This document shows, one piece after another, positions 5,063-64,000 of a DNA stretch of 64,000 bases. Under the pieces are notes generated by a model. The model had not been told where the DNA came from, made no database searches, and worked only from the letters and a program-made list of their open reading frames with translations. The stretch comes from Terriglobales bacterium. GTDB taxonomy: Bacteria > Acidobacteriota > Terriglobia > Terriglobales > SCQP01. How positions within the stretch are numbered: the stretch's first letter is position 1; each line of letters opens with the position of its first letter. A program made the translations under genes and the position numbers. Where the stretch lies: NCBI GenBank assembly GCA_035573035.1, contig DATNAC010000087.1, forward strand, positions 2,157-66,156, written 5' to 3'.

Positions 5063-5668
5063 TCAGCTCCCCAACAGGAAGCGGGCCAGGGTATCGGCTT
5101 TCAAGGCCAGAGTTTGAGCGCGGACCAAGTCCCCTTGGGCCAAGGCTTCCTGGGCCTGGCGGACAAACTCGGCAATCTGGTTGCGAGTGGCCAGTGCCTC
5201 CACGGTGAGGTTGTGCCGCGCATTGAGGACGGTCAGCGCGCGCCGGGTGTGGTCCAGGCTGTTGGAAATGTTGCGGCGGTCAGCGGCCTCCTGGGCGGGG
5301 CTGAGACGGGGAGTGAGTTGCGGACCCGCGGGAAGGGGTTCGCGCGTATCCACCGGCGGGGGCGCGGGCCGGTCCGGCGCGCGCGATGCATTCTCGGCTG
5401 TGCGGCGCGGGGCGGAGTGCGGCGGCGGGCCGACGATCGTGCGGGCGCTCAGTTGGGGCGGCGGCGCGGTGGTGGGGGTGAGTACCGCCGGAGCCGGCAT
5501 CGGCGGCTCCTGCGCCGGGTTGGGCAGCAAGATCGGAGCTTGGAGCACGACGATCGGTGGCGGAGCCGGCGGCCGGCGTTGAAAGAAGCCGCAGCCGGTT
5601 GCGCAGCCGGCGAGGACCATCACCCCCACCCCGCGCCACGGCGGGGCGGAACGTCCGCACCGGCTCAT
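5063..5668 (-). CDS. Proline-rich lipoprotein of unknown function
   Basis: Lipobox VLAGCATGC, a long Pro/Ala-rich linker and a helical C-terminal part. The start overlaps the stop of the upstream kinase gene. No recognisable family. Confidence 0.55.
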   Translation of the reverse strand: MSRCGRSAPPWRGVGVMVLAGCATGCGFFQRRPPAPPPIVVLQAPILLPNPAQEPPMPAPAVLTPTTAPPPQLSARTIVGPPPHSAPRRTAENASRAPDRPAPPPVDTREPLPAGPQLTPRLSPAQEAADRRNISNSLDHTRRALTVLNARHNLTVEALATRNQIAEFVRQAQEALAQGDLVRAQTLALKADTLARFLLGS

Positions 5669-7527
5669 ACCGCATCCTCGCCGGTGCGCAAGGGGAAGCG
5701 CAGCACAAAACTGGCGCCGGGGGGGGCGCTGGGTTCGAGTTCGATGGCGCCGTGATGCAATTGCATGATGCGCGCGGCCAGGGCGAGGCCGATGCCGGTG
5801 CCCTCGGTGCGGGTGGTGAAGTAGAGATCGAAGATCTTTTCGCGGTCCTCGACCGGTACGCCTGGACCTTGGTCGCGCACGCGGATCAAGCCGTAGTGGT
5901 CTTGTTCGAACACCTCGAGTTGAAGGATGCCGGGGCCTGCGGCGGCTTCCATCGCTTGTAATCCATTATTGACCAAGTTGAGCAGCGCCTGCTCCACCAG
6001 ATCCCGGTCGAGCCAGACGTTGGGACCGGGCGCGGGCGCGCGCACCTCCACGTCGATGCCTTTGGCGGCGGCGCCGGCTTGTACGAGCTGGGCCACGCTC
6101 TGCACCATTTCGCTCAGGTCGCCCACCTGCAGGTTGAGCTCCACCGGGCGGCTAAAGTCGAGGAAGGTGCGGACGACGCGGTCCAGGCGATCAATCTCGC
6201 GCCGCATGATCTCGATGTGGGGCTGTAACCCGGTGGCTTCCGCGCCCGCCTTCTCCCGCAGCAGATCGAGGTGGATCGCCATCGCGTTGAGCGGGTTCTT
6301 GACCTCATGGGCCACGCCGCGGGTGAGGCGGCCCACGGCGGAGAGACGGCGGGCCACCTCCAATTCGTTTTCCAGGCGGTAGACGGGCTCGGCATCGCGC
6401 AGGGTGAGGAGCGAGCCAAACTGACCGGAGCGGTCGCGCACCAAGTCGAGCCGGGCCAGGATGGGCCGGCCGCCCGGCAGCCGGTCGGTTTCGCGCGAGG
6501 TGAGAGCCACCTTCTGCCGCACCGCCAGACGGACAGCGCGGTCCAGGCCGGAAGGGCCGGGGAACAGCGCTTCGACCGGGCGGCCGGCGATGTCACCGGC
6601 GGGTAGGCCGAGCAGCCGGGGGGTGGCGGCGCTGGCCATAACGCTTTGTCCAGAGGCGTCAAAGAGCAACAACCCCTCTTCCAGGCTCTCAAGCACATGG
6701 CTGACATTTTCCTGGAGGGTGCTGTAGACCTGGCGCACATCGGCCATTTCGCGGCCGAGGTACTGGATTTTCGACGAAACGATCCCAAACTCGTCACGCT
6801 GGCCTTCGCGCCGCACGAGGGAGGCGGTGGCGCTGGCCGCCTCCGGGGCCAAGGCGTCCAACTGGGCGCGAATCCGTCCCAGCGGGGCCAGGATGGACTC
6901 GGCCAGACTCCAGGCCAGGATGGTCGCGAACAGGACGACCAGGCCGCCATACAGGGCGAGCTGGCGGATTTCCCCAAGCATCGCCAAACGGAGCAATACG
7001 GTGTCCACACCGACCGAAATGGTACCCATGGGGTGGTTGTCAGCCTCGGTGGCGAGGCTGACGGAGTAGATGGCGTCGGCGCCGAAGACCGCCTTGCCCT
7101 GCTCCCAAAGGCCGCTGTGCATGACGTCGCTCAGCAGGCGGCGATTGGGCTGTATCGTGCCCACCAGTTCGGGGTTGGAATCGGCGGCGATGACCCCATC
7201 GGGCGCAACCAGCGCGACGTCCCGGATGGTGTTGTTGTACCCGATTGAGGAGCTGAACAGATTTGCGATGGCGGGGCTGGAATTCAGGCTTTGCAAGAAC
7301 TGTTGCAGTGTGGCCGGGTCGCGGCTCCGCAGTTGCCCCGAGGCATAGGAGGCGGAGAGCTCCTGTTTCATTTCGTTGTAGATCTCGTCGGCCAGGAAGT
7401 CGGCGTGGGTATACACCTCCTGTACGCGCTGCTGAACCACGCGGGCGAGGTAAATGAGGTTCACCGCGAGCACCACCAGCAGCACCAGAAGGGAAATGCC
7501 GAGAGTGAGTTTGGTCTTAAGCTTCAT
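5665..7527 (-). CDS. Membrane sensor histidine kinase (periplasmic sensor, PAS, HisKA, HATPase_c)
   Basis: N-terminal TM MKLKTKLTLGISLLVLLVVLAV. H-box GVAHEVKNPLNAM, N-box LLNLVNNGLQAM, G1 DQGPGV, G2 GTGIGLALA. Confidence 0.9.
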   Translation of the reverse strand: MKLKTKLTLGISLLVLLVVLAVNLIYLARVVQQRVQEVYTHADFLADEIYNEMKQELSASYASGQLRSRDPATLQQFLQSLNSSPAIANLFSSSIGYNNTIRDVALVAPDGVIAADSNPELVGTIQPNRRLLSDVMHSGLWEQGKAVFGADAIYSVSLATEADNHPMGTISVGVDTVLLRLAMLGEIRQLALYGGLVVLFATILAWSLAESILAPLGRIRAQLDALAPEAASATASLVRREGQRDEFGIVSSKIQYLGREMADVRQVYSTLQENVSHVLESLEEGLLLFDASGQSVMASAATPRLLGLPAGDIAGRPVEALFPGPSGLDRAVRLAVRQKVALTSRETDRLPGGRPILARLDLVRDRSGQFGSLLTLRDAEPVYRLENELEVARRLSAVGRLTRGVAHEVKNPLNAMAIHLDLLREKAGAEATGLQPHIEIMRREIDRLDRVVRTFLDFSRPVELNLQVGDLSEMVQSVAQLVQAGAAAKGIDVEVRAPAPGPNVWLDRDLVEQALLNLVNNGLQAMEAAAGPGILQLEVFEQDHYGLIRVRDQGPGVPVEDREKIFDLYFTTRTEGTGIGLALAARIMQLHHGAIELEPSAPPGASFVLRFPLRTGEDAV

Positions 7528-7645
7528 GCGGCGTGGTTGGGCGTGGGGCCCAGCGTGGCGGCGGCGCGCGTTCCGCTGAGGTTCACGCCGATTTGGGGCC
7601 TCGATTCGCTATGCCGGCGCTGCGCCCGGGACGCCGCGACGGCCA

Positions 7646-9013
<1,368 letters not shown>

Positions 9014-9238
9014 CCTTCCACTCTACCCGAGGTTGTGACGGAGACGGAATGCGCGAGGCGGGCTGCCGATTGCCGTTTGGCCGAGGACCGTCGGGCGGCT
9101 GGGCCTGCCCGGATCGGGCAATTTTGACCCTCGCGATGGGAGATTTTGCGTAGACGAGAACCGCAGGCGCGGCAATTTGCAGCCTAGGCGAGACGGGCAA
9201 ACGCTAGCGCAGCGCTGCCGTGGCGTGGTGGGCGAATT

Positions 9239-11715: not shown

Positions 11716-11756
11716 GCGGCCAACGGGAGCGACCCAGGCAAAAGTGGCCGTGCCAC
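11716..11756 (+). repeat. Dispersed intergenic repeat, copy A (41 nt)
   Basis: GCGGCCAACGGGAGCGACCCAGGCAAAAGTGGCCGTGCCAC is near-identical to 55351-55393. The first 22 nt and last 13 nt are identical, with a 2-nt indel between them. Confidence 0.85.
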
Positions 11757-13753: not shown

Positions 13754-13923
13754 GGCAGGCTCCGTTCCGGTCACCGTTCCAATCGGGAATGACAATTCCG
13801 GAAATGGGCACGGTACGGGAAGCGACGGGGTGGCCCAAGCCGGATCGCGGTTGTCCCTTTTCGGCCGATAAATCCTGCACAGACAATAGGTTGGCGCACC
13901 CGCAGCGGGAGCCGGTGCCGGGT

Positions 13924-13939
13924 TGGCACATCGGGTGCA
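13924..13939 (+). promoter_or_regulatory. Candidate sigma-54 (-24/-12) promoter in front of the second activator gene
   Basis: TGGCAC-ATCGG-GTGCA with GG-N10-GC spacing, 33 nt before the ATG at 13973. GAAGG RBS in between. Confidence 0.5.
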
Positions 13940-13972
13940 AGTCCCTGGGGCGAAGGAAAGCCGAAGGCCCCT

Positions 13973-15352
13973 ATGACTGGACTACCACACATACTCATTG
14001 CCGATGATCAGGAAGCGGTGCGGGAGATTTGCGTCAGCCTGGCTACCAGTCTCGGATACCGCGCGAGCGGCGTTGCCAGCGGCAGGGAGGCGATGCGCGT
14101 CTGGGACCAGGAGCCGGCCCATGTGCTGGTGTGCGACGTGCGGCTGCCCGACATGAGCGGAGTCGAGCTCATGAAGCGCTGGCGGCAGCGTTGGCCCGCG
14201 GCCCCGGTGCTGTTGACGACCGCATACGGCACGGTGGGCATGGCGGTGGAGGCAATGAAGCTGGGCGCCAGCGATTACGTCACCAAACCCTTCGAACTCG
14301 AGGAAATGCGGCTGCTATTGCAGAATTGCGTGCGCCGCGCGCAGGTCGAAGGCGAAGGACGACGGCTGCATTTGGGGGCGCGCTCGCCGGCGGCGGGCGG
14401 CACGCTGATTGGAAGTTCGCCCTCCATGCAGCGCGTCTTCCGCTTGATCGGCAAGGTGGCGCAAAGCCGGTATTCGGTGCTCATTCTGGGCGAGAGTGGC
14501 ACCGGAAAGGAAGTGGTCGCGCGGGCATTGCACTATACCGGACCGGAGCGCGACCGCCCTTTCCTGCCGGTCGATTGCGGCGCCTTGGTGCCCTCCCTGG
14601 TGGAGAGCGAGTTGTTCGGATACGTGAAGGGGGCGTTTACCGGCGCGCACCACAACCATCAAGGCCTGTTGGAGGTCGCGAACGGCGGTACCGTCTTTTT
14701 GGATGAGATCGGCGAACTCCCGCTTGACCTCCAGGTCAAGCTGCTGCGTGCGATCCAAGAGAAAGAGGTGCGCCCGGTTGGGGCCACGCGGCGCATCCCG
14801 GTGGACGTGCGCATCGTAGCCGCCACCAACCGCGACTTGCAGACGGCGGTGGCGGAGGGGCGGTTCCGCAAGGATTTATTCTTCCGCTTGAACGTGGTCA
14901 GCATCAAGCTGCCGCCGCTACGCGAGCGCGTGATGGACATTCCGCTGCTGGTCGAGCACTTTCTCGACCGCTTCACGCCGCCGGGCATGCCGGTGCGCAC
15001 CTTCAGCGATGAGGCCATGGCGCGCATGCTGGCCTACGACTGGCCGGGCAATATCCGCGAACTGGAGAACTGCGTGGAACGCACGCTGGCGTTGGCGCCG
15101 GGTCCGCGGCTGGAGGCGGCGGATCTGCCCAGCGCGTTGCAGCAACTACAACCGCGGGCGCCGATCGCCCGCCACGATTCCAATACCGTACGAGCCATGG
15201 TTGAGGTGGAGCGCGAAGCGATTCTGGATGCCCTCTCCCAGGCCAAAGGCGACAAGCTCCTGGCAGCCAAGCTGCTGGGCATCGGCAAGACGACGATCTA
15301 CCGCAAACTCAAGGAGTACACCTTTGCGGCGCAAGCCGGAGGCGGCCAATGA
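13973..15352 (+). CDS. Sigma-54-dependent response regulator (REC, AAA+, Fis-type HTH; NtrC family)
   Basis: REC domain ILIADDQEAV...LVCDVRLPDMSG. GESGTGKEVVARALH, KGAFTGA, and HTH LLAAKLLGIGKTTIYRKLKEY. Confidence 0.93.
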   Translation: MTGLPHILIADDQEAVREICVSLATSLGYRASGVASGREAMRVWDQEPAHVLVCDVRLPDMSGVELMKRWRQRWPAAPVLLTTAYGTVGMAVEAMKLGASDYVTKPFELEEMRLLLQNCVRRAQVEGEGRRLHLGARSPAAGGTLIGSSPSMQRVFRLIGKVAQSRYSVLILGESGTGKEVVARALHYTGPERDRPFLPVDCGALVPSLVESELFGYVKGAFTGAHHNHQGLLEVANGGTVFLDEIGELPLDLQVKLLRAIQEKEVRPVGATRRIPVDVRIVAATNRDLQTAVAEGRFRKDLFFRLNVVSIKLPPLRERVMDIPLLVEHFLDRFTPPGMPVRTFSDEAMARMLAYDWPGNIRELENCVERTLALAPGPRLEAADLPSALQQLQPRAPIARHDSNTVRAMVEVEREAILDALSQAKGDKLLAAKLLGIGKTTIYRKLKEYTFAAQAGGGQ

Positions 15353-53634: not shown

Positions 53635-53650
53635 TGGCATTCAAACTGCG
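53635..53650 (+). promoter_or_regulatory. Candidate sigma-54 (-24/-12) promoter
   Basis: TGGCAT-TCAAA-CTGCG with GG-N10-GC spacing, 39 nt before the ATG at 53690. Confidence 0.45.
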
Positions 53651-53689
53651 ATGAGGTGAATAGACTGCAAGTATGAATTGAGGTTCCTC

Positions 53690-53902
53690 ATGCTCCAGCC
53701 CGAGATGTCGGTTGGGCCCACTCCCGCCCGGCTGGTTTGGAAACGCTGCTTCGGCTGCGAAGGCTATTTCCAGGGACCGCTCGACGGCGGCTACCGCTGC
53801 CCGGGTTGCGTCCATAGGGTTGATGAACTGCGCCCGCGTCGCTACGGGCTTCTCACCAAGCCGGCCCACAAGCAACGGAACGCCAGAGCGCATGCGGCCT
53901 GA
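53690..53902 (+). CDS. Small zinc-ribbon protein (70 aa), hypothetical
   Basis: CFGC-N17-CPGC (RCFGCEGYFQGPLDGGYRCPGC). GAGG RBS 6 nt upstream, GC3 about 78 percent, basic C-terminus. Confidence 0.45.
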   Translation: MLQPEMSVGPTPARLVWKRCFGCEGYFQGPLDGGYRCPGCVHRVDELRPRRYGLLTKPAHKQRNARAHAA

Positions 53903-54140
53903 TCGGTACCCAGGCCTCGCGGGATACGCTTGGCCAAACCCGGCAACCCAATCTCATGCCGATCAACGCCTGGGCTAGAACCCTCAGCCCTGCGTCATTT
54001 CACACACGCTGCTGGCGCGAAACTCGCAGTGCGAGTGTTGCGCCCCCGGCAAGCAATGCAGGCGCGGTCCCCGCGCCCATCAAACGCCCCGGGTCGCTGG
54101 GCGGCCTTGGAAGTTGCGCTGGGGCCGCGGCTATCAATAT

Positions 54141-54156
54141 TGGCCGTCCAACTGCT
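54141..54156 (+). promoter_or_regulatory. Candidate sigma-54 (-24/-12) promoter
   Basis: TGGCCG-TCCAA-CTGCT with GG-N10-GC spacing, 24 nt before the ATG at 54181. GGAGG RBS in between. Confidence 0.5.
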
Positions 54157-54180
54157 TTCTCACCCTTGTCGGAGGTTTTT

Positions 54181-55116
54181 ATGTCGCAGCCCCAGGCCCT
54201 CTCCATCCCGGCTGACCCTCATTCGCACACCGCGCGCTACCGCTTGCAACGCGTGCTCGTTGCCACCGATTTTTCCGCGCCCGCCGAACGGGCCCTCCAA
54301 ATCGCGATTCGCTGGGCGCGCCAATACGATGCGGAGTTGATGCTGGTGTCGGTGGTCACTCCCGTCATGTCCGCCCCTCTGCCCGACGTCACCGAATCGG
54401 CCTGGGCCGCGGTTCAGGTTGAGGCCGAGTTGCTCAACTCCACCCAGAGCCGCCTTGCCGGGCTCGCCCATGACCGTCCCGAAATGCAAGGCCTGCGGCA
54501 CCGCGAGTATGCGTGCCAGGGTATGGTCGCTGGAACCATCGTGGCCGCCGCCGCCGAGCTCAAGGCTGATCTGGTCGTCGTCGGTACGAGCGCTGCCGGA
54601 CCGGTCCGCAATCTGCTGCTCGGCTCGACCGCGCAGGCCGTCATCCGCCATTGCGGCTGTCCGGTTCTGTTGGTCGGGCCCGAGGCCGAGAGCGGGCCAT
54701 CCCGCGGCAGCGTTCTCCTGGCCACCGACTTGGGCGCCGAGTCGCTGCGTCCGGCAGAATTCGCCGCCGCCATCGCCGCGGACACCAAGGCTCGCTTGAA
54801 CTTGCTGCACGTGGTGCACGATCCGGTCCCCGGCCTCGAACCCGAGATGCGCGCGGAGATCGAACGCGCGATCGAGGGCCAGTTACGCCGCCTTAGCCCC
54901 GCTGGAACCGACACGCAAACCCGTGTGGCATATGGCCACGCCGCATCCGCGATTGTGGCGGCCGCGGGCGAGTCTCGGGCCGGTTTGATCGTGATGGGAG
55001 TCAAACACGAAACTTGGTTCGGTGATCACGCGGGCCGAAGCACGCTCGCGCAGGTCGCCCAATTGGCACCGTGCCCCATATTGGCGGTACGCCATCATTC
55101 CGCTGAGACTGCGTAA
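54181..55116 (+). CDS. Universal stress protein, tandem Usp domains
   Basis: Start at the ATG at 54181. Two repeats of the pattern VLVATDFS...LVVVGTSAAGPVRNLLLGSTAQAVIRHCGCPVLLV and VLLATDLG...LIVMGVKH...STLAQVAQLAPCPILAV. Confidence 0.9.
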   Translation: MSQPQALSIPADPHSHTARYRLQRVLVATDFSAPAERALQIAIRWARQYDAELMLVSVVTPVMSAPLPDVTESAWAAVQVEAELLNSTQSRLAGLAHDRPEMQGLRHREYACQGMVAGTIVAAAAELKADLVVVGTSAAGPVRNLLLGSTAQAVIRHCGCPVLLVGPEAESGPSRGSVLLATDLGAESLRPAEFAAAIAADTKARLNLLHVVHDPVPGLEPEMRAEIERAIEGQLRRLSPAGTDTQTRVAYGHAASAIVAAAGESRAGLIVMGVKHETWFGDHAGRSTLAQVAQLAPCPILAVRHHSAETA

Positions 55117-55350
55117 TATGGTTTCGACTTCGAAGGGGCGAAACTCGCGTGTTGAGTTGCGCGCCCCGGCAAAAGCAATGCGTCAGTGTAAGGCGCACAA
55201 GAAGAGTGCCGGGCGCGTGGCCTTCCGCGCTGATCGGCGCGAAAGGCTGCGGAATATCAACGCCATCCGCGCTGGGGGCCGCGCCCATGCCTCGCGGATG
55301 CCCCGAGCGGTGCGGGCATCCGCTGCCGGTAATCGAAGCCCGGCCTCCGA

Positions 55351-55393
55351 GCGGCCAACGGGAGCGACCCAGCGCAAAAAGTGGCCGTGCCAC
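55351..55393 (+). repeat. Dispersed intergenic repeat, copy B (43 nt)
   Basis: GCGGCCAACGGGAGCGACCCAGCGCAAAAAGTGGCCGTGCCAC. See copy A at 11716-11756. Confidence 0.85.
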
Positions 55394-55401
55394 GCCGCCC
55401 G

Positions 55402-56076
55402 TCAAGGCGCAACGCTGATTCGATTATCGACCACGCTCACCCCCGGAGCCGACCAGGCCACGCCCATCGCTTGCTGCCATTCCGCCCACGAACGTACGCT
55501 GCCCCGGAGGATTACTTCGGATCCATTCACCTCGACTTTGACCCGGTGAGCATCGTGCAAGGCTCCTCGTAACAAGGCCGCTTCAATCTTGGTTTCCAAT
55601 CCGGAAGCGGCTACGGCCGGCCGGATCGTGATCCGGTTGTCCACCCCCCGGACGCCCATGAGGCGCCACACGGCATCCTCCGCCGCCCGCCTCTGGTATT
55701 GCCACTCCACTTCGCCGGTCAACGTGAGCAGTCCTTGCGCGACTGTGATCCGAATCTTCTCCCGCGGCACCGACGCGTCCCACTCCAAAGCCTGGACCGC
55801 CGCTCGCGCGATATCCGAATCACTGCGCTCGGCGAAGCTCGGCAGATGCACCTCGATCTCATTCGCGACCGCGTACACCCCGCGCACGCGCTGTACCGCC
55901 TCCTCCGCCGTCCACTTTTTCGTGAGCGAGTCGACCCGGCCGGTCAGCGTAGCCACGCCGCCGGCCACCGTCACCCCGATCTCGTTGGGCTGCAACCGCG
56001 CGTCCCAGCGCAATTCCGCCTCCACATCGCGCTGAACCATCTCATCAGCTTTGATCACCGAAAGTACTCTGGCCAT
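55402..56076 (-). CDS. BON-domain protein (three BON repeats, OsmY-like)
   Basis: Start moved to the ATG at 56076 with a GGGGGA RBS. Three units of the type V.V.V..G.VTLTG.V...........A......GV..V.N.I.V. Confidence 0.88.
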   Translation of the reverse strand: MARVLSVIKADEMVQRDVEAELRWDARLQPNEIGVTVAGGVATLTGRVDSLTKKWTAEEAVQRVRGVYAVANEIEVHLPSFAERSDSDIARAAVQALEWDASVPREKIRITVAQGLLTLTGEVEWQYQRRAAEDAVWRLMGVRGVDNRITIRPAVAASGLETKIEAALLRGALHDAHRVKVEVNGSEVILRGSVRSWAEWQQAMGVAWSAPGVSVVDNRISVAP

Positions 56077-56176
56077 GGTTCCCCCTTGGGCGTTTGCATC
56101 CTGCTTGCGATACCGAGGCTGCCGGAATCGCCCGACCGGCGCCTCGGTACGGGCCCTTGCCCGCGTCCCCGCGCCT

Positions 56177-56680
56177 CTAGGCGGCGAGAGCCTGAATTCC
56201 ATGCTTCTCCGGAGCCGCTTTCGCGGCTTCGATATGGAGCCGGCCGTGATCGAGGCTCGCCGCCGTTTTGTCAATGTTGATCGCCTGCGGCAGGTCCACG
56301 CGCCGGTAGACCTCGTCGGCCCCGAACTCGGACCAGAGGACGCGCCGGCCCTGAAACTTCGATTCCTTTTTGCTTTTGGCGTGCACGATGAGCCCGGCGG
56401 GTGTCGCCGAGACCTCTACCTCGTTTGCGGTGAATCCGGGCAACGCCAAATCGAGATGGTAGCCACCGTCGTCCTCCGACAGTTCGCCAGCCGACCACCC
56501 CAACGTTTCCCGCTCGGCTTTGAGCCAGTTCTCCAGAGCATGCCCGTCGGCGCACCGCTGCCCGTCGAAGATTTCGAAGGCCCGGCGCTGGATCGCCTGG
56601 AAGCGCTTTTCGATCTCCGCCAATGCCGGAATCGGATTGTGTTGCATGTCTTGGCTTTTTTCAACTGCGACCGCTGCCAT
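56177..56680 (-). CDS. Hsp20/alpha-crystallin small heat-shock protein with DUF2934-like N-terminal segment
   Basis: Start at the ATG at 56680 (GGGGGAGG RBS). N-terminus QRRAFEIFDGQRCADGHALENWLKAERE. ACD region GYHLDLALPGFTANEVEV...RRVDLPQAINIDKTAASLDHGRLHIEA. Confidence 0.9.
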   Translation of the reverse strand: MAAVAVEKSQDMQHNPIPALAEIEKRFQAIQRRAFEIFDGQRCADGHALENWLKAERETLGWSAGELSEDDGGYHLDLALPGFTANEVEVSATPAGLIVHAKSKKESKFQGRRVLWSEFGADEVYRRVDLPQAINIDKTAASLDHGRLHIEAAKAAPEKHGIQALAA

Positions 56681-56707
56681 AAAGTATTCCTCCCCCGCAT
56701 ATACCAC

Positions 56708-56723
56708 AGCAAGCCGGATGCCA
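56708..56723 (-). promoter_or_regulatory. Candidate sigma-54 (-24/-12) promoter (best match in the window)
   Basis: The minus strand reads TGGCAT-CCGGC-TTGCT, 27 nt before the Hsp20 ATG at 56680, inside a 54-nt spacer. Confidence 0.6.
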
Positions 56724-56734
56724 CATGCGCACCG

Positions 56735-57610
56735 TTACCCCCGCAGCGTCAGTACCGGGCAGGGCGCATCGCACACGATCCTGTGGGTGAGCGTCGACAG
56801 ATGATCGGTCATTCCGGCGGAGCCCCGGGCCCCCATGACGATCAGGTCCGCTTTGAGTTCTCCGGCGGCGGTGAGGATGCAATCAGCCGGTGGTCCCACG
56901 TCAAGGCGGATCTCCGGAGGGGTCCAGAAGCAGACGCCGCCGGGCTTGAGCGCCCCCAGCCTCCGCTCCGCGGCTTCATAGCGCGAAGTGTCCCCGGCAT
57001 GCTGCGGTGGTATCGCGTGCATCAAGGTCAATTGCGCGCGATACTCCTGCGCCAGCCGGCCGGCATACTCGGCGACCCGCTCCGATGCGTCTCCCAAGCC
57101 GCAGGCGGCGAGGATGCTGTAAAACTCGCTGCCGTGGCGAGTGTGCCAGGCATTCGGACCGACCGTCAGCACCGGGCAGGGCAGCGACCGCAGGATGTTT
57201 TCCGAGGTGGATCCCAGGATGAGGCGGCCGACGCCGTTACGTCCACTGGCTCCCACCACCGCCAGATCGATTTTCTCCTCGGCTACGAACTCCGGTAACA
57301 CCAGTTCCGGCCGGCCCTGCAGCAAATGCGCCTGATGGGCGAGACCGGCCAGCAAGGCGGAGTGGTCAACCGCGTCGAGCTGCTCCTGGCCCACCCGCAG
57401 CATCCAGCATAGGGTCGGGGAACTGACGTCGGGCGTGGCGTCATAGGGCCGCATCCAGACCACATGCGCGAGATGCAGTCGAGCGTTGTGCTTGCCCGCC
57501 AACTCCGCGGCGAAACGAACGGCGGCGTTGGCCGCCGGCGAAAAGTCTGTTGTCACCAGTATCTCTTTGAGCCCGAGCGCGGCCGCCGGGGATGCCATCG
57601 CGTTTGACAT
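56735..57610 (-). CDS. Universal stress protein, tandem Usp domains
   Basis: Start set to the ATG at 57610, which has a GGAGG 5 nt upstream (the track uses GTG at 57622). ILVTTDFSPAANAAV..., LAVVGASGRNGVGRLILGSTSENILRSLPCPVLTV, and a second domain ending MGARGSAGMTDHLSTLTHRIVCDAPCPVLTL. Confidence 0.9.
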   Translation of the reverse strand: MSNAMASPAAALGLKEILVTTDFSPAANAAVRFAAELAGKHNARLHLAHVVWMRPYDATPDVSSPTLCWMLRVGQEQLDAVDHSALLAGLAHQAHLLQGRPELVLPEFVAEEKIDLAVVGASGRNGVGRLILGSTSENILRSLPCPVLTVGPNAWHTRHGSEFYSILAACGLGDASERVAEYAGRLAQEYRAQLTLMHAIPPQHAGDTSRYEAAERRLGALKPGGVCFWTPPEIRLDVGPPADCILTAAGELKADLIVMGARGSAGMTDHLSTLTHRIVCDAPCPVLTLRG

Positions 57611-57634
57611 AACAGCCTCCACAAATGGAGGTGG

Positions 57635-57650
57635 TGCAACCGGCCCGCCA
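57635..57650 (-). promoter_or_regulatory. Candidate sigma-54 (-24/-12) promoter
   Basis: The minus strand reads TGGCGG-GCCGG-TTGCA with GG-N10-GC spacing, 24 nt before the ATG at 57610. Confidence 0.5.
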
Positions 57651-57804
57651 TATCGCGCGATCCGCCTCGTACTGATTCCATGGCGGATACCGCCAGCGCG
57701 CGATCCGCCGTGGTACTCCTGGTTCGAGCGATGCGGCCTGGCTTGGAGGCCCCTGCCCCGACTCGGGTGAAATGCCCCATGTCAGCCATTTGTGAGAACC
57801 GCGG

Positions 57805-57932
57805 GCTCGAAGTGGTCTCATAATGCCGCAGCAGGCCGCCTGGGGCGAGCTGGATGCGGCTTTTTCTGGGGAAAAAGCCGCACACGATCCATTCGCGTAG
57901 AGTTTGGCACCAATTATGAGACCACTTCTAGC
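57805..57932. repeat. Nested inverted-repeat element (20-bp arms, 88-nt interior) including a gene stop codon
   Basis: Arms GCTCGAAGTGGTCTCATAAT (57805-57824) and ATTATGAGACCACTTCTAGC (57913-57932): 16 bp perfect, 19/20 overall. Inner perfect 10-bp hairpin GCGGCTTTTT-CTGGGG-AAAAAGCCGC (57856-57881). The right arm contains the TAG stop (57928-57930) of the acyl-CoA synthetase gene. Confidence 0.75.
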
Positions 57933-60084
57933 GCTGCACCCGAATGCGGGCGTCGACAATCGCGGCTCCGGCAGGATGTACCACGATAGGGTTGCAGTCG
58001 AGTTCGACGATCTCCGGCATCTGGCTGGCCAACCAGCTCAGGTTCACCAACGCCTCGACTAGCGCGGAGATATTGCACGGCGCCGTACCCCGGTAGCCGC
58101 TGAGCAGAGGCGCGCATCGCAGCCGCCGGATCATCGCCTCGGCCTCCCGCGCGTCGAGAGGCGCGAGCCCCACGGCGATATCGTGAATCAATTCCACCAT
58201 GAAACCGCCTAAACCACAGGCGACGACCGGCCCGAAGATGGGGTCGCGGATCACGCCGAGGATCATCTCCACGCCCGGCGGCGCCATTTCCTGAACCAGC
58301 CAACCGGCTGGCTCGAGTCCGCCCCGCTCCAGTGTCGCTTGCATGGCGGCGGCCGCCTTCTGTACCGTCTCGGTGCCCAGCAGGCCGAGCCGTACCGCCC
58401 CAATATCGCTCTTGTGTTGTATGCCCGGCAGGATCGCTTTGAGCGCGGCAGGCGCCGATTCCGAGAATACCGTGAGGCTCTCATCAACCCCGAATGCGCG
58501 CTGCCGCACGAAAGGCAAACCGTAGCCGCTGAGGAGTTCGGCCGTGTCGTGCCCGCTTAGCCAACCGCCGGCGTCGGGGCGGGCCCCCGCCAGCGCCTGC
58601 TGGGCGCGTGCCCGCCGGCTTTCTTCGGGAGCCACGAGTTGGGGCGGCGGCAGTTCGCGCCAAGCGGCATAGCGCGCCGCGTGACCGAGCGCGCGCGCGG
58701 CCATCTCGGGAAACGAATAAGAGGGCAGCGCCCCGGTAGCGGTGCGGAGTTCCGGCAGCGGACCCGGCTTCGACATGAGGACGGTGAGCAGCGGCAGGCC
58801 CCCGTCAAGCGTTTGCGCCCCCGATCGGATGGCCGCGGCCGCGTCCGCCGGAGATGTCACCATGGGCGGAACGAAAATCGCGATCAGTGCGTCGACCTCC
58901 CCGCTGTTGCCCGCGATCTCGATGGCGCGGGTGAAGTGTCCGGCAGGAGCCGAGGCCACCAAATCCACGGGATTGGCTCGGCTCGCATCCGCCAGCAGAC
59001 AAGTGGCCAATTGGGCCTGGGTGGATGCCGAGAAAACCGGCACCGTCAATCCCTCCGCTTCGCACGCGTCCGCGCAAAGAATGCCCGGCCCGCCGGCATT
59101 GGTGACAATGCCCACCCGGCGCCCCGCCGGCAAGGGTTGATGAGCCAGCAGCGCCGCCGCACCGAACATCTCCTCCAGGGTATCCGTCCGCACCACGCCG
59201 GCTCGCTCGAACAAGGCGGCTACGGTCGAATCGTTGGCGGCCAGCAGCGCACCGGTGTGAGAGCCGCAAGCGCGCGCGCCGGCGCGCGTACGCCCGCTCT
59301 TGATGGCAAGAATGGGCTTCCGGCGCGATACCTGGCGCGCGATCGAGGCAAACCGCTGAGAATTCCCAAAAGATTCCAGGTACAGAAGCACGACCCCTAC
59401 GGCGGGGTCGTCCCTCCATAACTCGAGCAGGTCGTTGCTGGAGATATCGGCGTTGTTTCCGATCGAAGCGAAGCGCGCCAGCCCAAGCCCGAACTCCTGG
59501 GCCTGCTCCAGCACGGCCAGCCCCAGCGCTCCGCTCTGCGAGATGAAGCCGATGTTTCCAGGTATGGGCGCGTGCGGCGCGAAGGTGGCGTTCAGCTTCA
59601 CCCGCTCGTCGGTATTGATAAGTCCGAGACAGTTGGGCCCGATCAGGGGCACGCCCGCGACGCGGCAGAGATCGCGGAGCGAATCCTGCCGGCTGCTTCC
59701 GGCGGCGCCGCATTCGGCAAAGCCGGCCGAAATCACCACCAGGGCCCGCACCCCTTGGGCGATGCAGGCGCCCGCCACTTCCAACACCGACGCCGCGGGA
59801 GTGGCGATGATGGCCAGGTCCACTATCGCCGGGACGGCGGTGATGTCAGGATACGCTTGCACACTGTGGACGACAGGAGAGCGGGCATTCACCGGGTACA
59901 CAACGCCCTGGAAATCGCCCGCAAGCAGGTTGAGGAAAATCGCGCCTCCGACGTGATCCGCCCGGCGCGATGCTCCGATCACCGCAATGGACCGCGGAGT
60001 GAACAGCGCATCCAGTGCACCGAGCAGAGCGGGCAGCCCGCTGTGGAAAACGGCTTCTTGCCGGGGCGGAAGAATTGACGGCAT
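57928..60084 (-). CDS. ADP-forming acetyl-CoA (acyl-CoA) synthetase, fused alpha/beta type
   Basis: Start moved to the ATG at 60084. LFTPRSIAVIGASRRADHVGGAIFLNLL...GVVYPVNARSPVVHSVQAY...DLAIIATPA...ALVVISAGFAE (CoA-binding/ligase-CoA domains) plus a C-terminal ATP-grasp. Confidence 0.87.
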   Translation of the reverse strand: MPSILPPRQEAVFHSGLPALLGALDALFTPRSIAVIGASRRADHVGGAIFLNLLAGDFQGVVYPVNARSPVVHSVQAYPDITAVPAIVDLAIIATPAASVLEVAGACIAQGVRALVVISAGFAECGAAGSSRQDSLRDLCRVAGVPLIGPNCLGLINTDERVKLNATFAPHAPIPGNIGFISQSGALGLAVLEQAQEFGLGLARFASIGNNADISSNDLLELWRDDPAVGVVLLYLESFGNSQRFASIARQVSRRKPILAIKSGRTRAGARACGSHTGALLAANDSTVAALFERAGVVRTDTLEEMFGAAALLAHQPLPAGRRVGIVTNAGGPGILCADACEAEGLTVPVFSASTQAQLATCLLADASRANPVDLVASAPAGHFTRAIEIAGNSGEVDALIAIFVPPMVTSPADAAAAIRSGAQTLDGGLPLLTVLMSKPGPLPELRTATGALPSYSFPEMAARALGHAARYAAWRELPPPQLVAPEESRRARAQQALAGARPDAGGWLSGHDTAELLSGYGLPFVRQRAFGVDESLTVFSESAPAALKAILPGIQHKSDIGAVRLGLLGTETVQKAAAAMQATLERGGLEPAGWLVQEMAPPGVEMILGVIRDPIFGPVVACGLGGFMVELIHDIAVGLAPLDAREAEAMIRRLRCAPLLSGYRGTAPCNISALVEALVNLSWLASQMPEIVELDCNPIVVHPAGAAIVDARIRVQR

Positions 60085-60086
60085 GG

Positions 60087-60704
60087 TCACCGGCTCCTGA
60101 CGGGCGGCTGCGCTCGCGAGCCGGCAACGACGCCCGGCCGCAAAAGGTACCATCCCATTACGACCGACATCAATCCCATGCCGACCGGAAACAGCACGTA
60201 CTGCTCCCTGCGCACAAAGCTCTGCACAATCAAAAGCGTCAGGGCGGCGGCGATGGCAAGCTCGCCGGCGATCCGCGCCGACCATTCGCCGGTGACAATG
60301 CCGAGCGCGACGTAGACCAATACCACGGTAAAAACCGCGCCCAGAGTAAATCCGGACAATAAGGCGGCGTTCAGGCCGGCATGGAACAGATCCTTGGCCG
60401 CCACCAGGCCCAGCCAAAAACCGCCCGTTGCCCAGGGCAAACTGAACACCAGCAGCGCGGTCGCCAGGGATCCGCGAAACCAGGTCGGATGGATCTCCGG
60501 CCAACGCAACCGGGCTCCCAGCAACATCGCCAGAATCGGCCCAACCGGGAGAAAGGCGCCGATGCACCACAGCCAGCCGTTTTCGTAAGGTACAGCGTTG
60601 GCGGCCACGCCCGCGGCTGCGCCCAATACCAGAAACACCGACAAGCGGCCGGCAACGGCGGCCAGCGATCGCGGAGTTAAGGCGGATAGGGGTTCAGCGG
60701 GCAT
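60087..60704 (-). CDS. Integral membrane protein, unknown function (about 6 TM)
   Basis: Start set to the ATG at 60704 (MPAEPLS...). Strongly hydrophobic, no family recognised. The stop lies 2 nt before the synthetase ATG, and the start overlaps the upstream Hsp20 stop by 11 nt. Confidence 0.6.
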   Translation of the reverse strand: MPAEPLSALTPRSLAAVAGRLSVFLVLGAAAGVAANAVPYENGWLWCIGAFLPVGPILAMLLGARLRWPEIHPTWFRGSLATALLVFSLPWATGGFWLGLVAAKDLFHAGLNAALLSGFTLGAVFTVVLVYVALGIVTGEWSARIAGELAIAAALTLLIVQSFVRREQYVLFPVGMGLMSVVMGWYLLRPGVVAGSRAQPPVRSR

Positions 60705-61182
60705 GGCGGGTGCCCTTCTTGCCTTGCCGGCCCTCCGGCGCAGGTAATACACGAATGTCCAATACGCCGCGGTTCAGATGAGCTTTGACTTCACCCGTCT
60801 CACGGTCGCAGGGCAGGGGGATGCGCCTACAAATAACGCGCCCGCCGAATTCATCCAAAAAGATGCGGCCGCGGCCGTCGCGTTCGTGGCAGGTGCCGTA
60901 GAGCACGGCGCAGTCCGTTCCCACGTCCAGTTCAAGATCGCGGAGCCCGAATCCGGGCACCTCGGCCCGCAGCAGGAGGGTGCCGTCGTCGTTTTCCATC
61001 AGCTGTGTCGGGACCGGCCGCGTCAACTCGCGCTCAGCCTCCAACCAGTGCTCCAGGGCGCGGCCGGGAATGGACCCCTCCGCTTCATACAATTCGTATG
61101 CGCGGCGTTCCAACCGGCTCTGGAACTGCTCGACGCGGGCCTGCGCACGTTCCTCGCTTTTGGTGATCAATATTCCGGGCAT
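60694..61182 (-). CDS. Hsp20/alpha-crystallin small heat-shock protein with DUF2934-like N-terminal segment
   Basis: Start moved to the ATG at 61182 (GAAGGAAG RBS). N-terminus LERRAYELYEAEGSIPGRALEHWLEAEREL. ACD region LLLRAEVPGFGLRDLELDV...RRIPLPCDRETGEVKAHLNRGVLDIRV. Confidence 0.85.
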   Translation of the reverse strand: MPGILITKSEERAQARVEQFQSRLERRAYELYEAEGSIPGRALEHWLEAERELTRPVPTQLMENDDGTLLLRAEVPGFGLRDLELDVGTDCAVLYGTCHERDGRGRIFLDEFGGRVICRRIPLPCDRETGEVKAHLNRGVLDIRVLPAPEGRQGKKGTRHAR

Positions 61183-61366
61183 AAGCTTCCTTCGTCGCGT
61201 GGTGGCCGGCGGCTTTGGCGCCGCTCGCCCTCTACCGTTGCACGCCGGTCCCCACTGAAGGCAAGGCATCGGGAACGGCCAAACGGGGTTGCTCGGCTTC
61301 CGACTGAGGGTGGGCCTGAGGCAGATGCCGCAAGGTGCGGAGGTTGACCCCATTTGCGGGATCCAC

Positions 61367-62197
61367 TCACATCAGCGCCGCCACGCCGAGCATGATCTCC
61401 TCGATTTCCTCGGTCGTGGCTTCCTGTACGGCGGCGTTCAAGCGAAAGCCCACCTGCTCCACGCGGCGGTCGACTTCGCGCACGGCCCCCTCGAGATGCC
61501 GGGCGCGCTGCCGGTTTTCGGCCATCACCGAGGTCAGGTAGATGGCGCTCATCAGTCCCGCAAGGTATTCGTCTGCCAGTTCCAGGAGGAACGTGTCCGG
61601 CCGCTCATGCAACCGTGGCGGGTAGGGATAGAGACGGGGTTCGCGGCGTTGCAAGCGCGAGAAGGGCCGCACCACGCGGGTGGTCAAGCCGCTTTCGGTG
61701 TCGTCGTTATAAATCACGGTGAAATCCGCGGGCATGGCGCCTTGGTCGCGCAGCAGCGGATAGAGTCTCTTCAGCACGCCGGTCATTTCATTTGAGCGCG
61801 CGGGCATCGGGATGGTCAAGGCAACCCGCGGGTCGCTGCCGTACCGCAGCGCCATGCGCGTGCCCGCCAGCGCGATTCGGATGGCCCGGCGATCGCCGGC
61901 GCACCGGGCAAGGAGAGCTGCCCAAAGGCTCTGGTTGAAGGCGCCACAAAAGCCACGCTCGGATCCCATCAGGAAAAAGACCTGGGGAGCGCCCAAATCG
62001 CATCGCGGTGCGCGGCCGTAGTGGCCGAGATAGTCGCTCACCGCCCGTTCCAGTACATGCATGCTTGCCTGCTGTGCCTCCGCCGCCGGCCGCAGTTTCA
62101 GCGCCTCGGCAAGCGACAGATTCTTCATCGCCGCCAGGACCTCGCGCACTTGTGTCAACGCATGCTGGCGGGCGCGCAACTCCGACCGCCGTCCCAT
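61367..62197 (-). CDS. atpG: F-type ATPase gamma subunit (alternate/N-type-like)
   Basis: The ATG at 62197 overlaps the alpha stop (ATGA). LTQVREVLAAMKNLSLAE, GSERGFCGAFN and the C-terminal TTEEIEEIMLGVAAL match gamma signatures. Divergent overall. Confidence 0.85.
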   Translation of the reverse strand: MGRRSELRARQHALTQVREVLAAMKNLSLAEALKLRPAAEAQQASMHVLERAVSDYLGHYGRAPRCDLGAPQVFFLMGSERGFCGAFNQSLWAALLARCAGDRRAIRIALAGTRMALRYGSDPRVALTIPMPARSNEMTGVLKRLYPLLRDQGAMPADFTVIYNDDTESGLTTRVVRPFSRLQRREPRLYPYPPRLHERPDTFLLELADEYLAGLMSAIYLTSVMAENRQRARHLEGAVREVDRRVEQVGFRLNAAVQEATTEEIEEIMLGVAALM

Positions 62198-63696
62198 CAG
62201 GATGCCGCCTCCGCCGCCGGCGGGCGTCGTTCCTCCCATCGCTGTGTCAATGCGGTCATAGCCGCCGCCCACCGCGAGCGGCCGGATCCGAGCTGTAAGT
62301 CCAGAGCCGGCACTTCCGCGGTCAAGAAGTGCAAATAATCGGCCATGTCAGCGGGTTGCCGCGAATCGAGCCGGTGCTCGTTGAAAGCGACCAACCAGGC
62401 CAGGTGCAGTTCGGGCGCCTGGGGCATGCGCGGAGCCTGTTTCAAAATTTCGCGCAGCAGCCGGCCGCGGTGAATTTGCAGCGCAATTGAGGCTTCGAGT
62501 TTGGCCCCAAAACGGGTGAACACCTCCAATTCCAGAAAACGCAGGTAGTCGAGCTTCATGCGCCCCGCTTCAGTGCGGATGGCCGGCGGCTGGGCCGCGC
62601 CGCCGATGCGGGATACCGAGCGCGTCACATCGATCGCGGGCAGGATGCCCGCGGAGAACAGCGGGGCGGCAAAGTAAACTTGCCCGTCGGTGATCGAAAT
62701 CAGATTGGTGGGGATATAGGTGGCCAGCTCGCCCTCGTGCGTTTCCGCCAGGGCCAGCGCGGTCATCGTCCCGCCCCCACGCGCCCGCGAGAGGCTCGCG
62801 GCGCGCTCCAGCAGGCGGGCATGGAGATAAAAGATATCTGCCGGAAAGGCCTCGCGGCCCGGCGGCCGCCGCAGCAGCAGCGACAGTTCGCGGTAGCAGT
62901 CGGCATGGGTGGTGAGATCGTCGTAGACGACCAGGGTGTCTTGACCGCGGCGCATCCAGTATTCCGCGACGGCGGCGCCCGCGAACGGCGCCAGGTACTG
63001 CAACCCCGGCAGCGAGGCCGCATCGGCGGCCACCAGGCAGGTGTAGTCCAGGGCGCCGCCGCGGCGTAGCGCTTCCAGCACGCCGGCCACGCTCGCGCGC
63101 CGTTGTCCGATCGCGACGTAAACGCAACGCACGCCTTGGTCGCGCTGGCGCAACACCACGTCGAGGGCGAGCGTGGTCTTGCCCAGGCCGTTATCGCCGA
63201 TGAAGAGCTGCCGCTGGCCGCGCCCGATCGGAATCATGGTGTCGACGATCCGGTTGCCGGTGAACAGGGGCCGGCTCACAAAATCGCGATCGACGATGGG
63301 GGGTGAAAGAATGTCGAGCGGCCCGCGTTCCACACAGTCCGGCGCCTCGCGCTCGTCCAGCGCCCCGCCCAGCGGGTCCAGAACGCGCCCGAGTACGGCT
63401 TCGCCCACCGGCAGGGTGAGTTGCCACCCGGCCGATCGTACCTGCATGCCGGTAGCCAGACCCCCGCTGGAGCGCAACAGAATCCCTCCCAGCGAATCCT
63501 CCGCCAATTGGCAAACCAGTGCCTGGCTGCCGTCCTCAAACTCGAGCACGTCATCGATGGCCGCCGAGGGCAGTCCGGCAACCCAAACAATGCCGTCGCC
63601 GACGGCGGTGACGCGCCCGGACTCGGCAACGCGCAGGCCAGGCGTATAGGTTGCCAGCCAGGCGCGCTGCTGCTCGAGCGGTGCCCAGCGCGCCAT
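62197..63696 (-). CDS. atpA: F-type ATPase alpha subunit (alternate/N-type-like)
   Basis: REAFPADIFYLHARLLERAA and IPTNLISITDGQVYF are alpha signatures. The P-loop reads GDNGLGKT instead of the usual GDRQTGKT. Confidence 0.9.
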   Translation of the reverse strand: MARWAPLEQQRAWLATYTPGLRVAESGRVTAVGDGIVWVAGLPSAAIDDVLEFEDGSQALVCQLAEDSLGGILLRSSGGLATGMQVRSAGWQLTLPVGEAVLGRVLDPLGGALDEREAPDCVERGPLDILSPPIVDRDFVSRPLFTGNRIVDTMIPIGRGQRQLFIGDNGLGKTTLALDVVLRQRDQGVRCVYVAIGQRRASVAGVLEALRRGGALDYTCLVAADAASLPGLQYLAPFAGAAVAEYWMRRGQDTLVVYDDLTTHADCYRELSLLLRRPPGREAFPADIFYLHARLLERAASLSRARGGGTMTALALAETHEGELATYIPTNLISITDGQVYFAAPLFSAGILPAIDVTRSVSRIGGAAQPPAIRTEAGRMKLDYLRFLELEVFTRFGAKLEASIALQIHRGRLLREILKQAPRMPQAPELHLAWLVAFNEHRLDSRQPADMADYLHFLTAEVPALDLQLGSGRSRWAAAMTALTQRWEERRPPAAEAAS

Positions 63697-63697
63697 C

Positions 63698-64000
63698 TTA
63701 CGCGCTCCCCTCTCCCGCCTGACAGAAAGCCGCGAGTTCGTCCGCCAGATTGGCGCTCAGCGTATGCGATCCCGCCTGGATTCGCACTCCGGCGAGCAAC
63801 GTCGCATCCACCGTGCAGTGCAAGGCGGCGGGAGCGGCGCCAAGGCTGGCCAGACCGCCGCTCAGAGCCGCCTCCTGGGCGCCATGCAGCGGATAGGCGC
63901 TGGCCAACTCCACCACGGTCGCGGGCGCATGGCGCAGGGCGTCGCCCTGTGGCGGCGGCAACCGCGCCAAGTCCTCAAGCAGCATGCCGATCAGCCGGTC
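63698..64000 (-). CDS. F-type ATPase delta (OSCP)-like C-terminus, possibly a b/delta fusion (5' part outside the window)
   Basis: The reading frame stays open to the window edge. The C-terminus VVELASAYPLHGAQEAALSGGLASLG...VDATLLAGVRIQAGSHTLSANLADELAAF resembles the OSCP C-terminal pattern (vD.sLiGG..i..g....D.S....L). Confidence 0.55.
   Translation of the reverse strand, partial: DRLIGMLLEDLARLPPPQGDALRHAPATVVELASAYPLHGAQEAALSGGLASLGAAPAALHCTVDATLLAGVRIQAGSHTLSANLADELAAFCQAGEGSA

Follow-up and report, generated by a model that had tools for sequence, protein, structure and literature searches.

The last part of the 64,000-nucleotide stretch analysed here (the window; Terriglobales bacterium, assembly GCA_035573035.1, contig DATNAC010000087.1) carries genes for an N-type rotary ATPase, a fused ADP-forming acyl-CoA synthetase (ACD), tandem universal stress proteins (USPs), small heat-shock proteins (sHSPs) of the Hsp20 family and a triple-BON protein. 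From their sequence they are tentatively regarded, at a little less than even confidence, as the distal half of a regulon for stress and energy maintenance under sigma-54 control, in an uncultured host. The window stops inside the locus, whose full extent is 20 kb or more. When AtpA was looked up for exact protein matches, the same DNA came up on a metagenome contig of the European Nucleotide Archive (ENA; label L001), which has independent gene calls and runs 9.7 kb beyond the window end. Window positions equal 73697 minus L001 positions, and the genome stretch covered by the analysis is about 75 kb. Domains of the open reading frames (ORFs) were assigned by Pfam and NCBIfam profile search. 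The ACD protein is identical to one from a 'Terriglobales bacterium' metagenome-assembled genome, on a 104.8-kb NCBI contig. The gene arrangement is probably no assembly artefact, because it is present in independent assemblies (the ENA contig and the 104.8-kb NCBI contig). The genes, strands and order that an earlier note on this DNA listed for 53635-64000 were all found in the ORFs, in the profile matches and in the gene calls on the ENA contig. As a correction to the first listing, several ORFs do not fill the longest frame available to them.

That these genes form a functional unit, as the earlier note held, is supported by a common sigma-54 promoter architecture, by the overlapping or abutting genes hsp20A, TM205 and ACD, and by a core that is kept in the closest relative. 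The full order on L001 is a PAS histidine kinase, an NtrC-type sigma-54 response regulator, a zinc alcohol dehydrogenase (Zn-ADH), hyp113 (-), the glycogen-debranching enzyme GlgX (-; TIGR02100, 732 bits against a cut-off of 641) and the Cys-rich hyp212 (-), followed divergently from hyp212 by atpD, atpC, AtpQ, atpB, atpE, a long atpF, atpA, atpG, hsp20A, TM205 and ACD. An inverted repeat, USP1, Hsp20B, BON and a terminator-like hairpin end the array. USP2 and a zinc-ribbon ORF converge on it from the other strand, as previously described.

A first scan with the motif TGGC-N7-TTGCW gave 4 perfect matches on L001, 3 of them just upstream of atpD, USP1 and Hsp20B, and 5 in the window against 1.4 expected (3/5 inside the island). 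Under a relaxed rule (GG and GC dinucleotides required, at most one mismatch) a sigma-54 site ends 23, 23, 33, 24, 27 and 24 nt before the start of ADH, hyp212(-GlgX), atpD, USP1, Hsp20B and USP2, respectively. Among 31 other window genes, taken as a control with a search zone twice as wide, 4 had any site, at scattered distances. Since the shuffle rate of the motif is only about 2.7e-4 per position, six sites within a 12-nt distance window are, by the estimate made here, far beyond chance. The locus is probably a single sigma-54 regulon of six transcription units, because six units each carry a -24/-12 element 23-33 nt before the start codon. The relaxed scan gave no site of their own to Hsp20A, BON and the zinc-ribbon ORF. 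A search for sigma-70 promoters and terminators returned nothing informative besides the terminator-like hairpin after BON. Between the inverted repeat and the USP1 promoter, at 57651-57720 (-), two direct copies of GGCGGATCGCGCG-N2-4-TGGCGG lie directly upstream of the USP1 sigma-54 element. The -24 box of this promoter is itself the second TGGCGG, and the repeat could be a regulator site or a promoter duplication.

The genes hsp20A and TM205 overlap by 11 nt, and TM205 and ACD are spaced by 2 nt. By this spacing TM205 is predicted to be translationally coupled to hsp20A and ACD. A single transcript of about 9.7 kb from atpD to ACD is the simplest reading, because no terminator-like or promoter-like site was found in the 185-nt gap between atpG and hsp20A. 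The long inverted repeat noted earlier after ACD is present, with arms of 20 nt that are 95% complementary and an inner perfect 12-bp hairpin at 57855-57882. Its RNA fold has a z of -4.8, better than all 100 shuffles, and it is probably a 3' end or stabiliser structure of the atp-hsp20-TM-ACD transcript. It was rejected as a known RNA (no Rfam match at E <= 1) and as a mobile repeat (no second copy in the window or in 90 fetched loci). In an exhaustive HMMER search TM205 had members in 4 clusters only, among 1.84 billion representatives. Its distant homologues lie on short contigs beside unrelated genes, and a metagenome scan added no copies. The AF2 model of TM205 has a pLDDT of 70.8 and no PDB fold match with E < 0.6. 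A SatP-like acetate channel and a substitute for AtpR were considered for this protein and rejected, with no Pfam or NCBIfam match and no fold match.

The ATPase operon has the order beta-epsilon-AtpQ-a-c-b-alpha-gamma (atpD-C-Q-B-E-F-A-G), which is the N-ATPase order atpD-C-Q-R-B-E-F-A-G, with beta and epsilon first, except for atpR. The hallmarks of N-ATPases are this order, the lack of a delta gene and a long b subunit with an OSCP-like C-terminus (PMC2881411, PMC4154653). Here the delta gene is missing, and the b subunit of 246 aa has the delta-like C-terminus (ATP-synt_B at 7-137, OSCP at 174-237) and aligns over residues 1-237 to the alternate-b model. AtpQ belongs to Pfam PF09527. The atpR gene, described as the 'tell-tale sign' of N-ATPases (PMC2881411), is absent from the operon, where AtpQ ends at L001 8293 and atpB starts at 8290, leaving no room, and where PF12966 has no match. 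H+ coupling is predicted because the c subunit has Met at the helix-1 position where Na+ binders have Gln or Glu, and because its motif reads E-S-L-A-I-Y; the full set of Na+ ligands is lacking. The beta subunit keeps the Walker A sequence GGAGVGKT and the catalytic GERxxE, and subunit a keeps the stator Arg. The NCBIfam models for the alternate F1F0 enzyme are not passed (score/cut-off: alpha 520/750 for TIGR03324, beta 553/752, a 173/302, c 86/131, b 95/225); alpha passes NF009884 and subunit a passes NF009954. By these features the enzyme is assigned to the atpR-less, H+-type (E-S-L-x-x-Y) N-type branch known from Nitrospiraceae. The Nitrospiraceae enzymes, an 'ESL-Y' branch likewise predicted to be H+-coupled, share the order, the absence of delta and atpR, the long b subunit, AtpQ PF09527 and a c motif E-S-L..Y without the helix-1 Glu or Gln; their adaptive advantage was left unclear in the 2025 paper (PMC12342949). 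In contrast to these, the operon studied here runs on into hsp20, an orphan transmembrane (TM) gene and ACD behind a sigma-54 promoter, and it falls below the curated alternate F1F0 cut-offs. The joint loss of AtpR and the helix-1 acidic residue would fit the idea of Dibrova that the arginines of AtpR pair with that residue.

Every complete genome with an N-ATPase also has a canonical F- or A-type ATP synthase, the N-ATPase being the second copy, and it was argued that N-ATPases do not make ATP (PMC2881411). For the N-ATPase of B. pseudomallei, whose c17 ring is H+-specific, a role as an efficient ATP-driven proton pump was proposed (PMC5376962). It is improbable that this presumably spare enzyme serves in the opposite direction, as an ATP synthase whose large c-ring works at a small micro-oxic proton-motive force (pmf), with ACD, USPs and chaperones co-expressed but no flow of ATP from ACD to the ATPase. 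Such a role would suit the high ion-to-ATP ratio that c17 gives to an N-type ring (PMC5376962), the Gly-to-Ala/Val replacements in helix 1 of the present c subunit, which could enlarge the ring, and the catalytically intact look of beta and subunit a. However, N-type enzymes never occur without another ATPase, and ATP synthesis by them was argued against (PMC2881411), and an operon shared with an ATP-yielding enzyme is more economically explained by the ATPase as an ATP sink.

The ACD protein aligns over its full length to PDB 8wzu, the structure of an ADP-forming 4-hydroxybutyrate-CoA ligase. It retains the two phospho-histidine motifs (GSHTGAL in the alpha part; IQHKSDIG in the beta part, pattern HK[ST][DE]) and has no GNAT domain, so that the enzyme is likely to be catalytically competent. 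Its specificity for acetate is assumed.

Homologues of the gamma subunit are few, the best being 60% identical and the rest at most 37%; a separate scan of a genome collection gave 27-38%. The closest relative, recovered from many sequencing runs (18 contigs), has gamma 60%, TM205 60% (in the same position), ACD 75% and the Cys-rich protein 62% identical. Its order is GAPDH-hyp78-GlgX-Cys-rich protein, then divergently atpDCQBEFAG-ZnR-DUF2934-Hsp20-TM205-tandem USP-ACD, followed by GntR and a GH57 glucan enzyme. The relative keeps the sigma-54 site of the divergent gene and has a weaker one before atpD. In a third lineage, in which ACD is 63% identical, ACD occurs with a convergent tandem USP and no ATPase.

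The inducing signal, the direction of pumping, the substrate and direction of ACD and the acting regulator are proposed as follows. An enhancer-binding response regulator, possibly that of the adjacent PAS-kinase/NtrC-type pair, would turn on six promoters. These would serve Zn-ADH; the Cys-rich protein with GlgX; atpDCQBEFAG-hsp20A-TM205-ACD, ending at the large hairpin; USP1; Hsp20B-BON; and USP2. The trigger would be limited respiration, most likely low oxygen. Stored glycogen would be taken to acetyl-CoA by way of GlgX and, in the relative, of the GH57 enzyme and GAPDH. ACD would convert acetyl-CoA, ADP and Pi to acetate and ATP, and the atpR-less, H+-coupled N-type ATPase would hydrolyse part of this ATP, by which membrane potential and cytoplasmic pH would be held. 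The sHSPs, the cytoplasmic triple-BON protein and the ATP-binding USPs would guard proteins and membrane and tune metabolism, and ADH would re-oxidise NADH. Domain 1 of USP1 has the ATP-binding motif G-x2-G-x9-G-S, as read from the sequence. A maintenance-energy module had been proposed in the earlier note. The idea remains plausible in view of the second-copy and pump literature on the N-type lineage, the kept histidine motifs of ACD and a low-oxygen programme published for relatives; its ten-gene combination is not conserved.

In A. capsulatum at 0.1 µM O2 a sensor kinase rose 84-fold and uspA by as much as 56-fold; glycogen and chaperone genes, pta and adhP were induced too, with acetate and ethanol routes, and the canonical ATP synthase was lowered (PMC11636273). 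Low O2 raised N-ATPase subunits in N. marina, and also USPs that lie next to induced operons (PMC8115632). In both organisms the low-oxygen functions are spread over the genome, unlike the cluster described here, and fusion of an ATPase operon with ACD or an sHSP gene is unreported. The N. marina enzyme is of the Na+ type with atpR, unlike the Terriglobales ATPase. The earlier note was aware of no description of this exact combination as a unit, which overstates its novelty, as comparable units are known, above all the DosR regulon and the lxa locus. The latter, from Burkholderia cenocepacia, is needed for survival, not growth, without O2 (PMC3721108). It shares with the present locus several USPs, an sHSP of the alpha-crystallin type, a BON-type protein that binds phospholipid, a route to acetate that yields ATP, a cation ATPase and regulators of its own (PMC3721108). 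It uses Pta-AckA, a P-type ATPase and Anr/FNR-type boxes (TGA-N6-TCA), whereas the Terriglobales locus has ACD, a rotary N-type ATPase and sigma-54 promoters; the two loci belong to different phyla, and their genes are not orthologous. The DosR regulon of Mycobacterium tuberculosis (summarised in PMC3721108) is likewise of the hypoxia type, rich in USPs and alpha-crystallin sHSP and linked to non-replicating survival. It differs in being dispersed over the chromosome, in its NarL-type regulator DosR and in having neither rotary ATPase nor ACD. The Terriglobales locus has a content of the lxa/DosR kind, with two tandem USPs, two Hsp20s, a triple-BON protein and a common sigma-54 promoter type.

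A genome scan for the ATPase gave 80 loci, from Acidobacteriota, Nitrospirota, Legionella, Microbulbifer, Methylococcales, Chromatiaceae and Burkholderiales. The operon order is constant in these clade loci and the neighbours vary. A Pfam census of 150 flanking ORFs showed no dominant family, the commonest families occurring 5 times. The recurring partners among the 80 loci are USP (8), alpha-glucan phosphorylase (6), acetate kinase (4), GAPDH (2), Hsp20 (2), ACD (1) and GlgX (1), and ACD together with USP stands beside the ATPase in one locus, Nitrospiraceae L075. In all, 17/80 loci have related neighbours; with lineages judged by record titles, these are 6/11 in Acidobacteriota and 6/8 in Nitrospirota (12/19 together), against 5/61 in the others. 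The ATPase branch is thus recurrently associated with glycogen breakdown, acetate-forming ATP synthesis and USPs in two phyla. In a crude control 24/31 non-island proteins of the window match none of the 80 loci; the control proteins matching most loci are regulators, including two sigma-54 regulators and a kinase. Among 80 metagenome loci of the ACD family a USP is adjacent in 6 and the ATPase in 0. On the evidence of both sets of 80 loci, for the ATPase and for ACD, widespread synteny of the whole block is rejected, and the exact block is lineage-restricted. It is possible, though doubtful, that atpR-less, H+-coupled N-type ATPases are 'fermentative pmf-maintenance pumps' across phyla, wired to glycogen mobilisation, ACD or acetate kinase and USPs, with the Terriglobales locus as the most complete example.

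USP genes lie directly upstream of atpD and on the same strand in Terriglobia loci L009 (1641-4719, five in tandem), L030 (3590-4534) and L007 (3987-4448). In L011 the order GlgP-USP-GlgX follows directly after atpG.

Several observations weigh against the energy-maintenance regulon. The synteny check suggested in the earlier note came out positive for the core in one close relative and for any related gene in the 17 distant loci, but this sole close relative found has no BON, Hsp20B or USP2 on its 17-kb contig, and 63/80 distant ATPase loci are without a related neighbour. As to regulation, the NtrC-type sigma-54 response regulator and the PAS kinase adjoin the locus beside Zn-ADH on L001; two further sigma-54 response regulators (7646-9022, -; 13793-15352, +) and a PAS histidine kinase (5665-7608, -) occur in the same 64 kb, so that the adjoining regulator is one candidate among several. 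A common upstream activator site for the six promoters was sought and rejected, no 12-mer (at most 2 mismatches) being common to at least 5 of the upstream regions. Sigma-54 control as a general trait of the ATPase clade was rejected as well, with a site upstream of atpD in 4/54 loci against 2/54 on the opposite-strand control. No enzyme that would lead from pyruvate to acetyl-CoA is present in the locus. ACD scores 462 bits against the curated acetate-CoA ligase cut-off of 567 (TIGR02717), and after three orthologues the next closest proteins are GNAT-ACD fusions, about 900 aa long and of unknown role. The neighbours of the clade include a P-type ATPase, TrkH and MscS, which point to ion homeostasis. 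As a side observation, the window is unusually dense in enhancer-binding proteins, and a sigma-54-like site, TGGCACATCGGGTGCA, stands at the start of the regulator ORF 13793-15352 itself.

The varying neighbours, the documented mobility of N-type operons (PMC2881411) and a G+C content at third codon positions (GC3) that is below that of adjoining genes would also be expected if a laterally acquired ATPase operon had come to lie beside unrelated stress genes without functional coupling. This is very improbable in view of the six equally spaced sigma-54 promoters, the overlapping or abutting genes, an order that is kept at 60% identity with the orphan TM gene included, and the recurrence of the theme across phyla.

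The properties of ACD allow for an enzyme that is not an energy-conserving acetate former, but activates or senses another acyl substrate or takes part in Pat-like regulation, in which case the metabolic link to the ATPase would be illusory. The score below the acetate-CoA ligase cut-off, the 4-hydroxybutyrate-CoA ligase as best solved relative and the recurrent partner of the family, USP (6/80 loci) and not the ATPase (0/80), agree with this. So do the relatives: 109/120 of those listed are GNAT fusions, at 52-56% identity, with SHTG in 108/109 and HK[ST][DE] in 97/109. The alternative is nevertheless quite improbable, as both phospho-histidine motifs are kept, the GNAT domain is absent, and acetate kinase holds the equivalent place beside the same ATPase clade in 4 other loci. 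The GNAT-ACD fusions (N-terminal GNAT) are a large family with a wide distribution; they occur in Armatimonadota, Firmicutes, Blastocatellia and Rokubacteria and are annotated merely as 'GNAT family N-acetyltransferase'.

The ion-homeostasis neighbours leave room for the same regulon to serve survival of acid, ionic or osmotic stress or of desiccation. The ATPase would then expel protons for pH homeostasis in a bacterium of acid soil, GlgX would feed trehalose or compatible solutes, the OsmY-like BON protein, sHSPs and USPs would protect against water or ionic stress, and ACD would merely supply ATP or recycle acyl-CoA. The N-ATPase of B. pseudomallei was proposed to be an acid-stress proton pump (PMC5376962), the best NCBIfam match of the BON protein is OsmY, and the sensor part of the adjacent kinase is known only for PAS folds. 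This role is unlikely, though far from negligible. The recurrent acetate kinase, ACD, GAPDH, glycogen phosphorylase and ADH fit a fermentative ATP supply better than solute synthesis, TreY and TreZ are not present, and acetate production would be counter-productive at low external pH. The gene set agrees with low-oxygen responses published for Terriglobia and Nitrospira (PMC11636273, PMC8115632), and these data support the energy-maintenance reading.

The components and the logic of the locus are already known, from lxa/DosR-type loci and from the N-type ATPase literature. The new elements are the fusion, both physical and regulatory, the wiring through sigma-54, an acidobacterium as host, the orphan TM205 and a link at clade level, which offers the atpR-less N-type ATPases a role. 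What N-type ATPases do physiologically has been an open question since 2010, and the 2025 survey left it so for the atpR-less branch. Soil Acidobacteriota are abundant, and their survival of oxygen and energy fluctuations is poorly understood. An ATPase and an ATP-yielding acyl-CoA enzyme on one predicted transcript give a testable hypothesis, namely that glycogen-derived ATP is spent on holding the membrane potential when respiration stops. It can be tested in culturable carriers of the ATPase clade, such as Legionella, Microbulbifer, Nitrospira and Terriglobia. Current ideas are not overturned; what would be added to the known hypoxia-survival loci is another phylum, another class of regulator and another energy device.

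Table 1. Genes and elements of the locus within the window (positions 53635-64000)
Feature	Position	Strand	Evidence or remark
Small zinc-ribbon ORF, 70 aa, CxxC...CPxC	53690..53902	+	ORF and independent gene call; no Pfam match
Sigma-54-type -24/-12 element TGGCCGTCCAACTGCT, ends 24 nt before USP2 start	54141..54156	+	L001 19541-19556, minus strand
Tandem universal stress protein USP2, 311 aa	54181..55116	+	Pfam Usp, two stretches, E = 1.5e-46; independent gene call
Terminator-like hairpin and T-run, GTGGCACGGCCAC TTTTTGC, just 3' of BON stop	55374..55393	-	Core of repeated 34-nt element
Triple-BON protein, 224 aa, no visible signal peptide	55402..56076	-	Pfam BON, three stretches, E = 1.7e-46
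Small heat-shock protein Hsp20B, 167 aa	56177..56680	-	Pfam HSP20, E = 8e-12
Sigma-54-type -24/-12 element TGGCATCCGGCTTGCT, ends 27 nt before Hsp20B start	56708..56723	-	
Tandem universal stress protein USP1, 291 aa	56735..57610	-	Pfam Usp, two stretches, E = 3.5e-47
Sigma-54-type -24/-12 element TGGCGGGCCGGTTGCA, ends 24 nt before USP1 start	57635..57650	-	
Long inverted repeat, branched hairpin starting at ACD stop	57805..57932	-	Arms 57805-57824 and 57913-57932
Fused alpha-beta NDP(ADP)-forming acyl-CoA synthetase ACD, 718 aa	57928..60084	-	Pfam CoA_binding_2, Succ_CoA_lig, ATP-grasp_5
Orphan membrane protein TM205, about 6 TM helices	60087..60704	-	No Pfam or NCBIfam match
DUF2934-Hsp20 protein Hsp20A, 162 aa	60694..61182	-	Pfam DUF2934, E = 2e-11; HSP20, E = 8e-7
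atpG, gamma subunit, 276 aa	61367..62197	-	Pfam ATP-synt, E = 6e-20
atpA, alpha subunit, 499 aa	62197..63696	-	NCBIfam NF009884, 647 bits against cut-off 554
atpF, 3' part; long b subunit, 246 aa in full, OSCP/delta-like C-terminus	63698 to beyond 64000	-	

The features of the locus within the window are listed in Table 1. Of the second protein described earlier as a DUF2934-Hsp20 fusion, Hsp20B, the Hsp20 part stands, and the DUF2934 part is weak, at 21.2 bits just under the Pfam cut-off of 22 bits. The zinc-ribbon ORF probably represents a true gene: the relative has the same CxxC...CPxC core (L082, about 8878-8952, +), there between atpG and hsp20 and not beside a USP. The Cys-rich hyp212 (L001 5253-5891, -, outside the window) belongs to no Pfam family and is predicted to share one transcript with GlgX behind a sigma-54 promoter. 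Its orthologue in the relative (L083 3773-4315, -), 62% identical, has the conserved pattern ...CRRGSAG.AGTC.GCP...YSI.VGDHGET.G... in common with it. A 34-nt element, GTGGCAYGGCCAC-TTTTTGC-CTGGGTCGCTCCCG, consisting of a palindrome and a T-run, occurs at L001 5294-5327, 5762-5795 and 18304-18337 (the last being window 55361-55393). One copy stands right after the BON stop and two bracket the conserved core of hyp212 on the antisense strand. A fourth, core-only copy lies at window 11737-11756 (-), in a distant intergenic region. It may act as a terminator or a binding site, or be a small repeat element.

The window has a high G+C content of about 0.66. Left of 53.4 kb it resembles ordinary acidobacterial chromosome, with TonB-type outer-membrane barrels, an M14 peptidase, an MFS transporter, DUF2891 and hydantoinases. 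A search for tRNA or integrase borders of the island found no tRNA in the window. GC3 is 0.72-0.76 in the island genes (atpA 0.80) against 0.78-0.88 in other window genes. For the island genes at 53635-62200 it lies about 0.08-0.10 below the neighbours, with total G+C unchanged, which is compatible with lateral origin or low expression.

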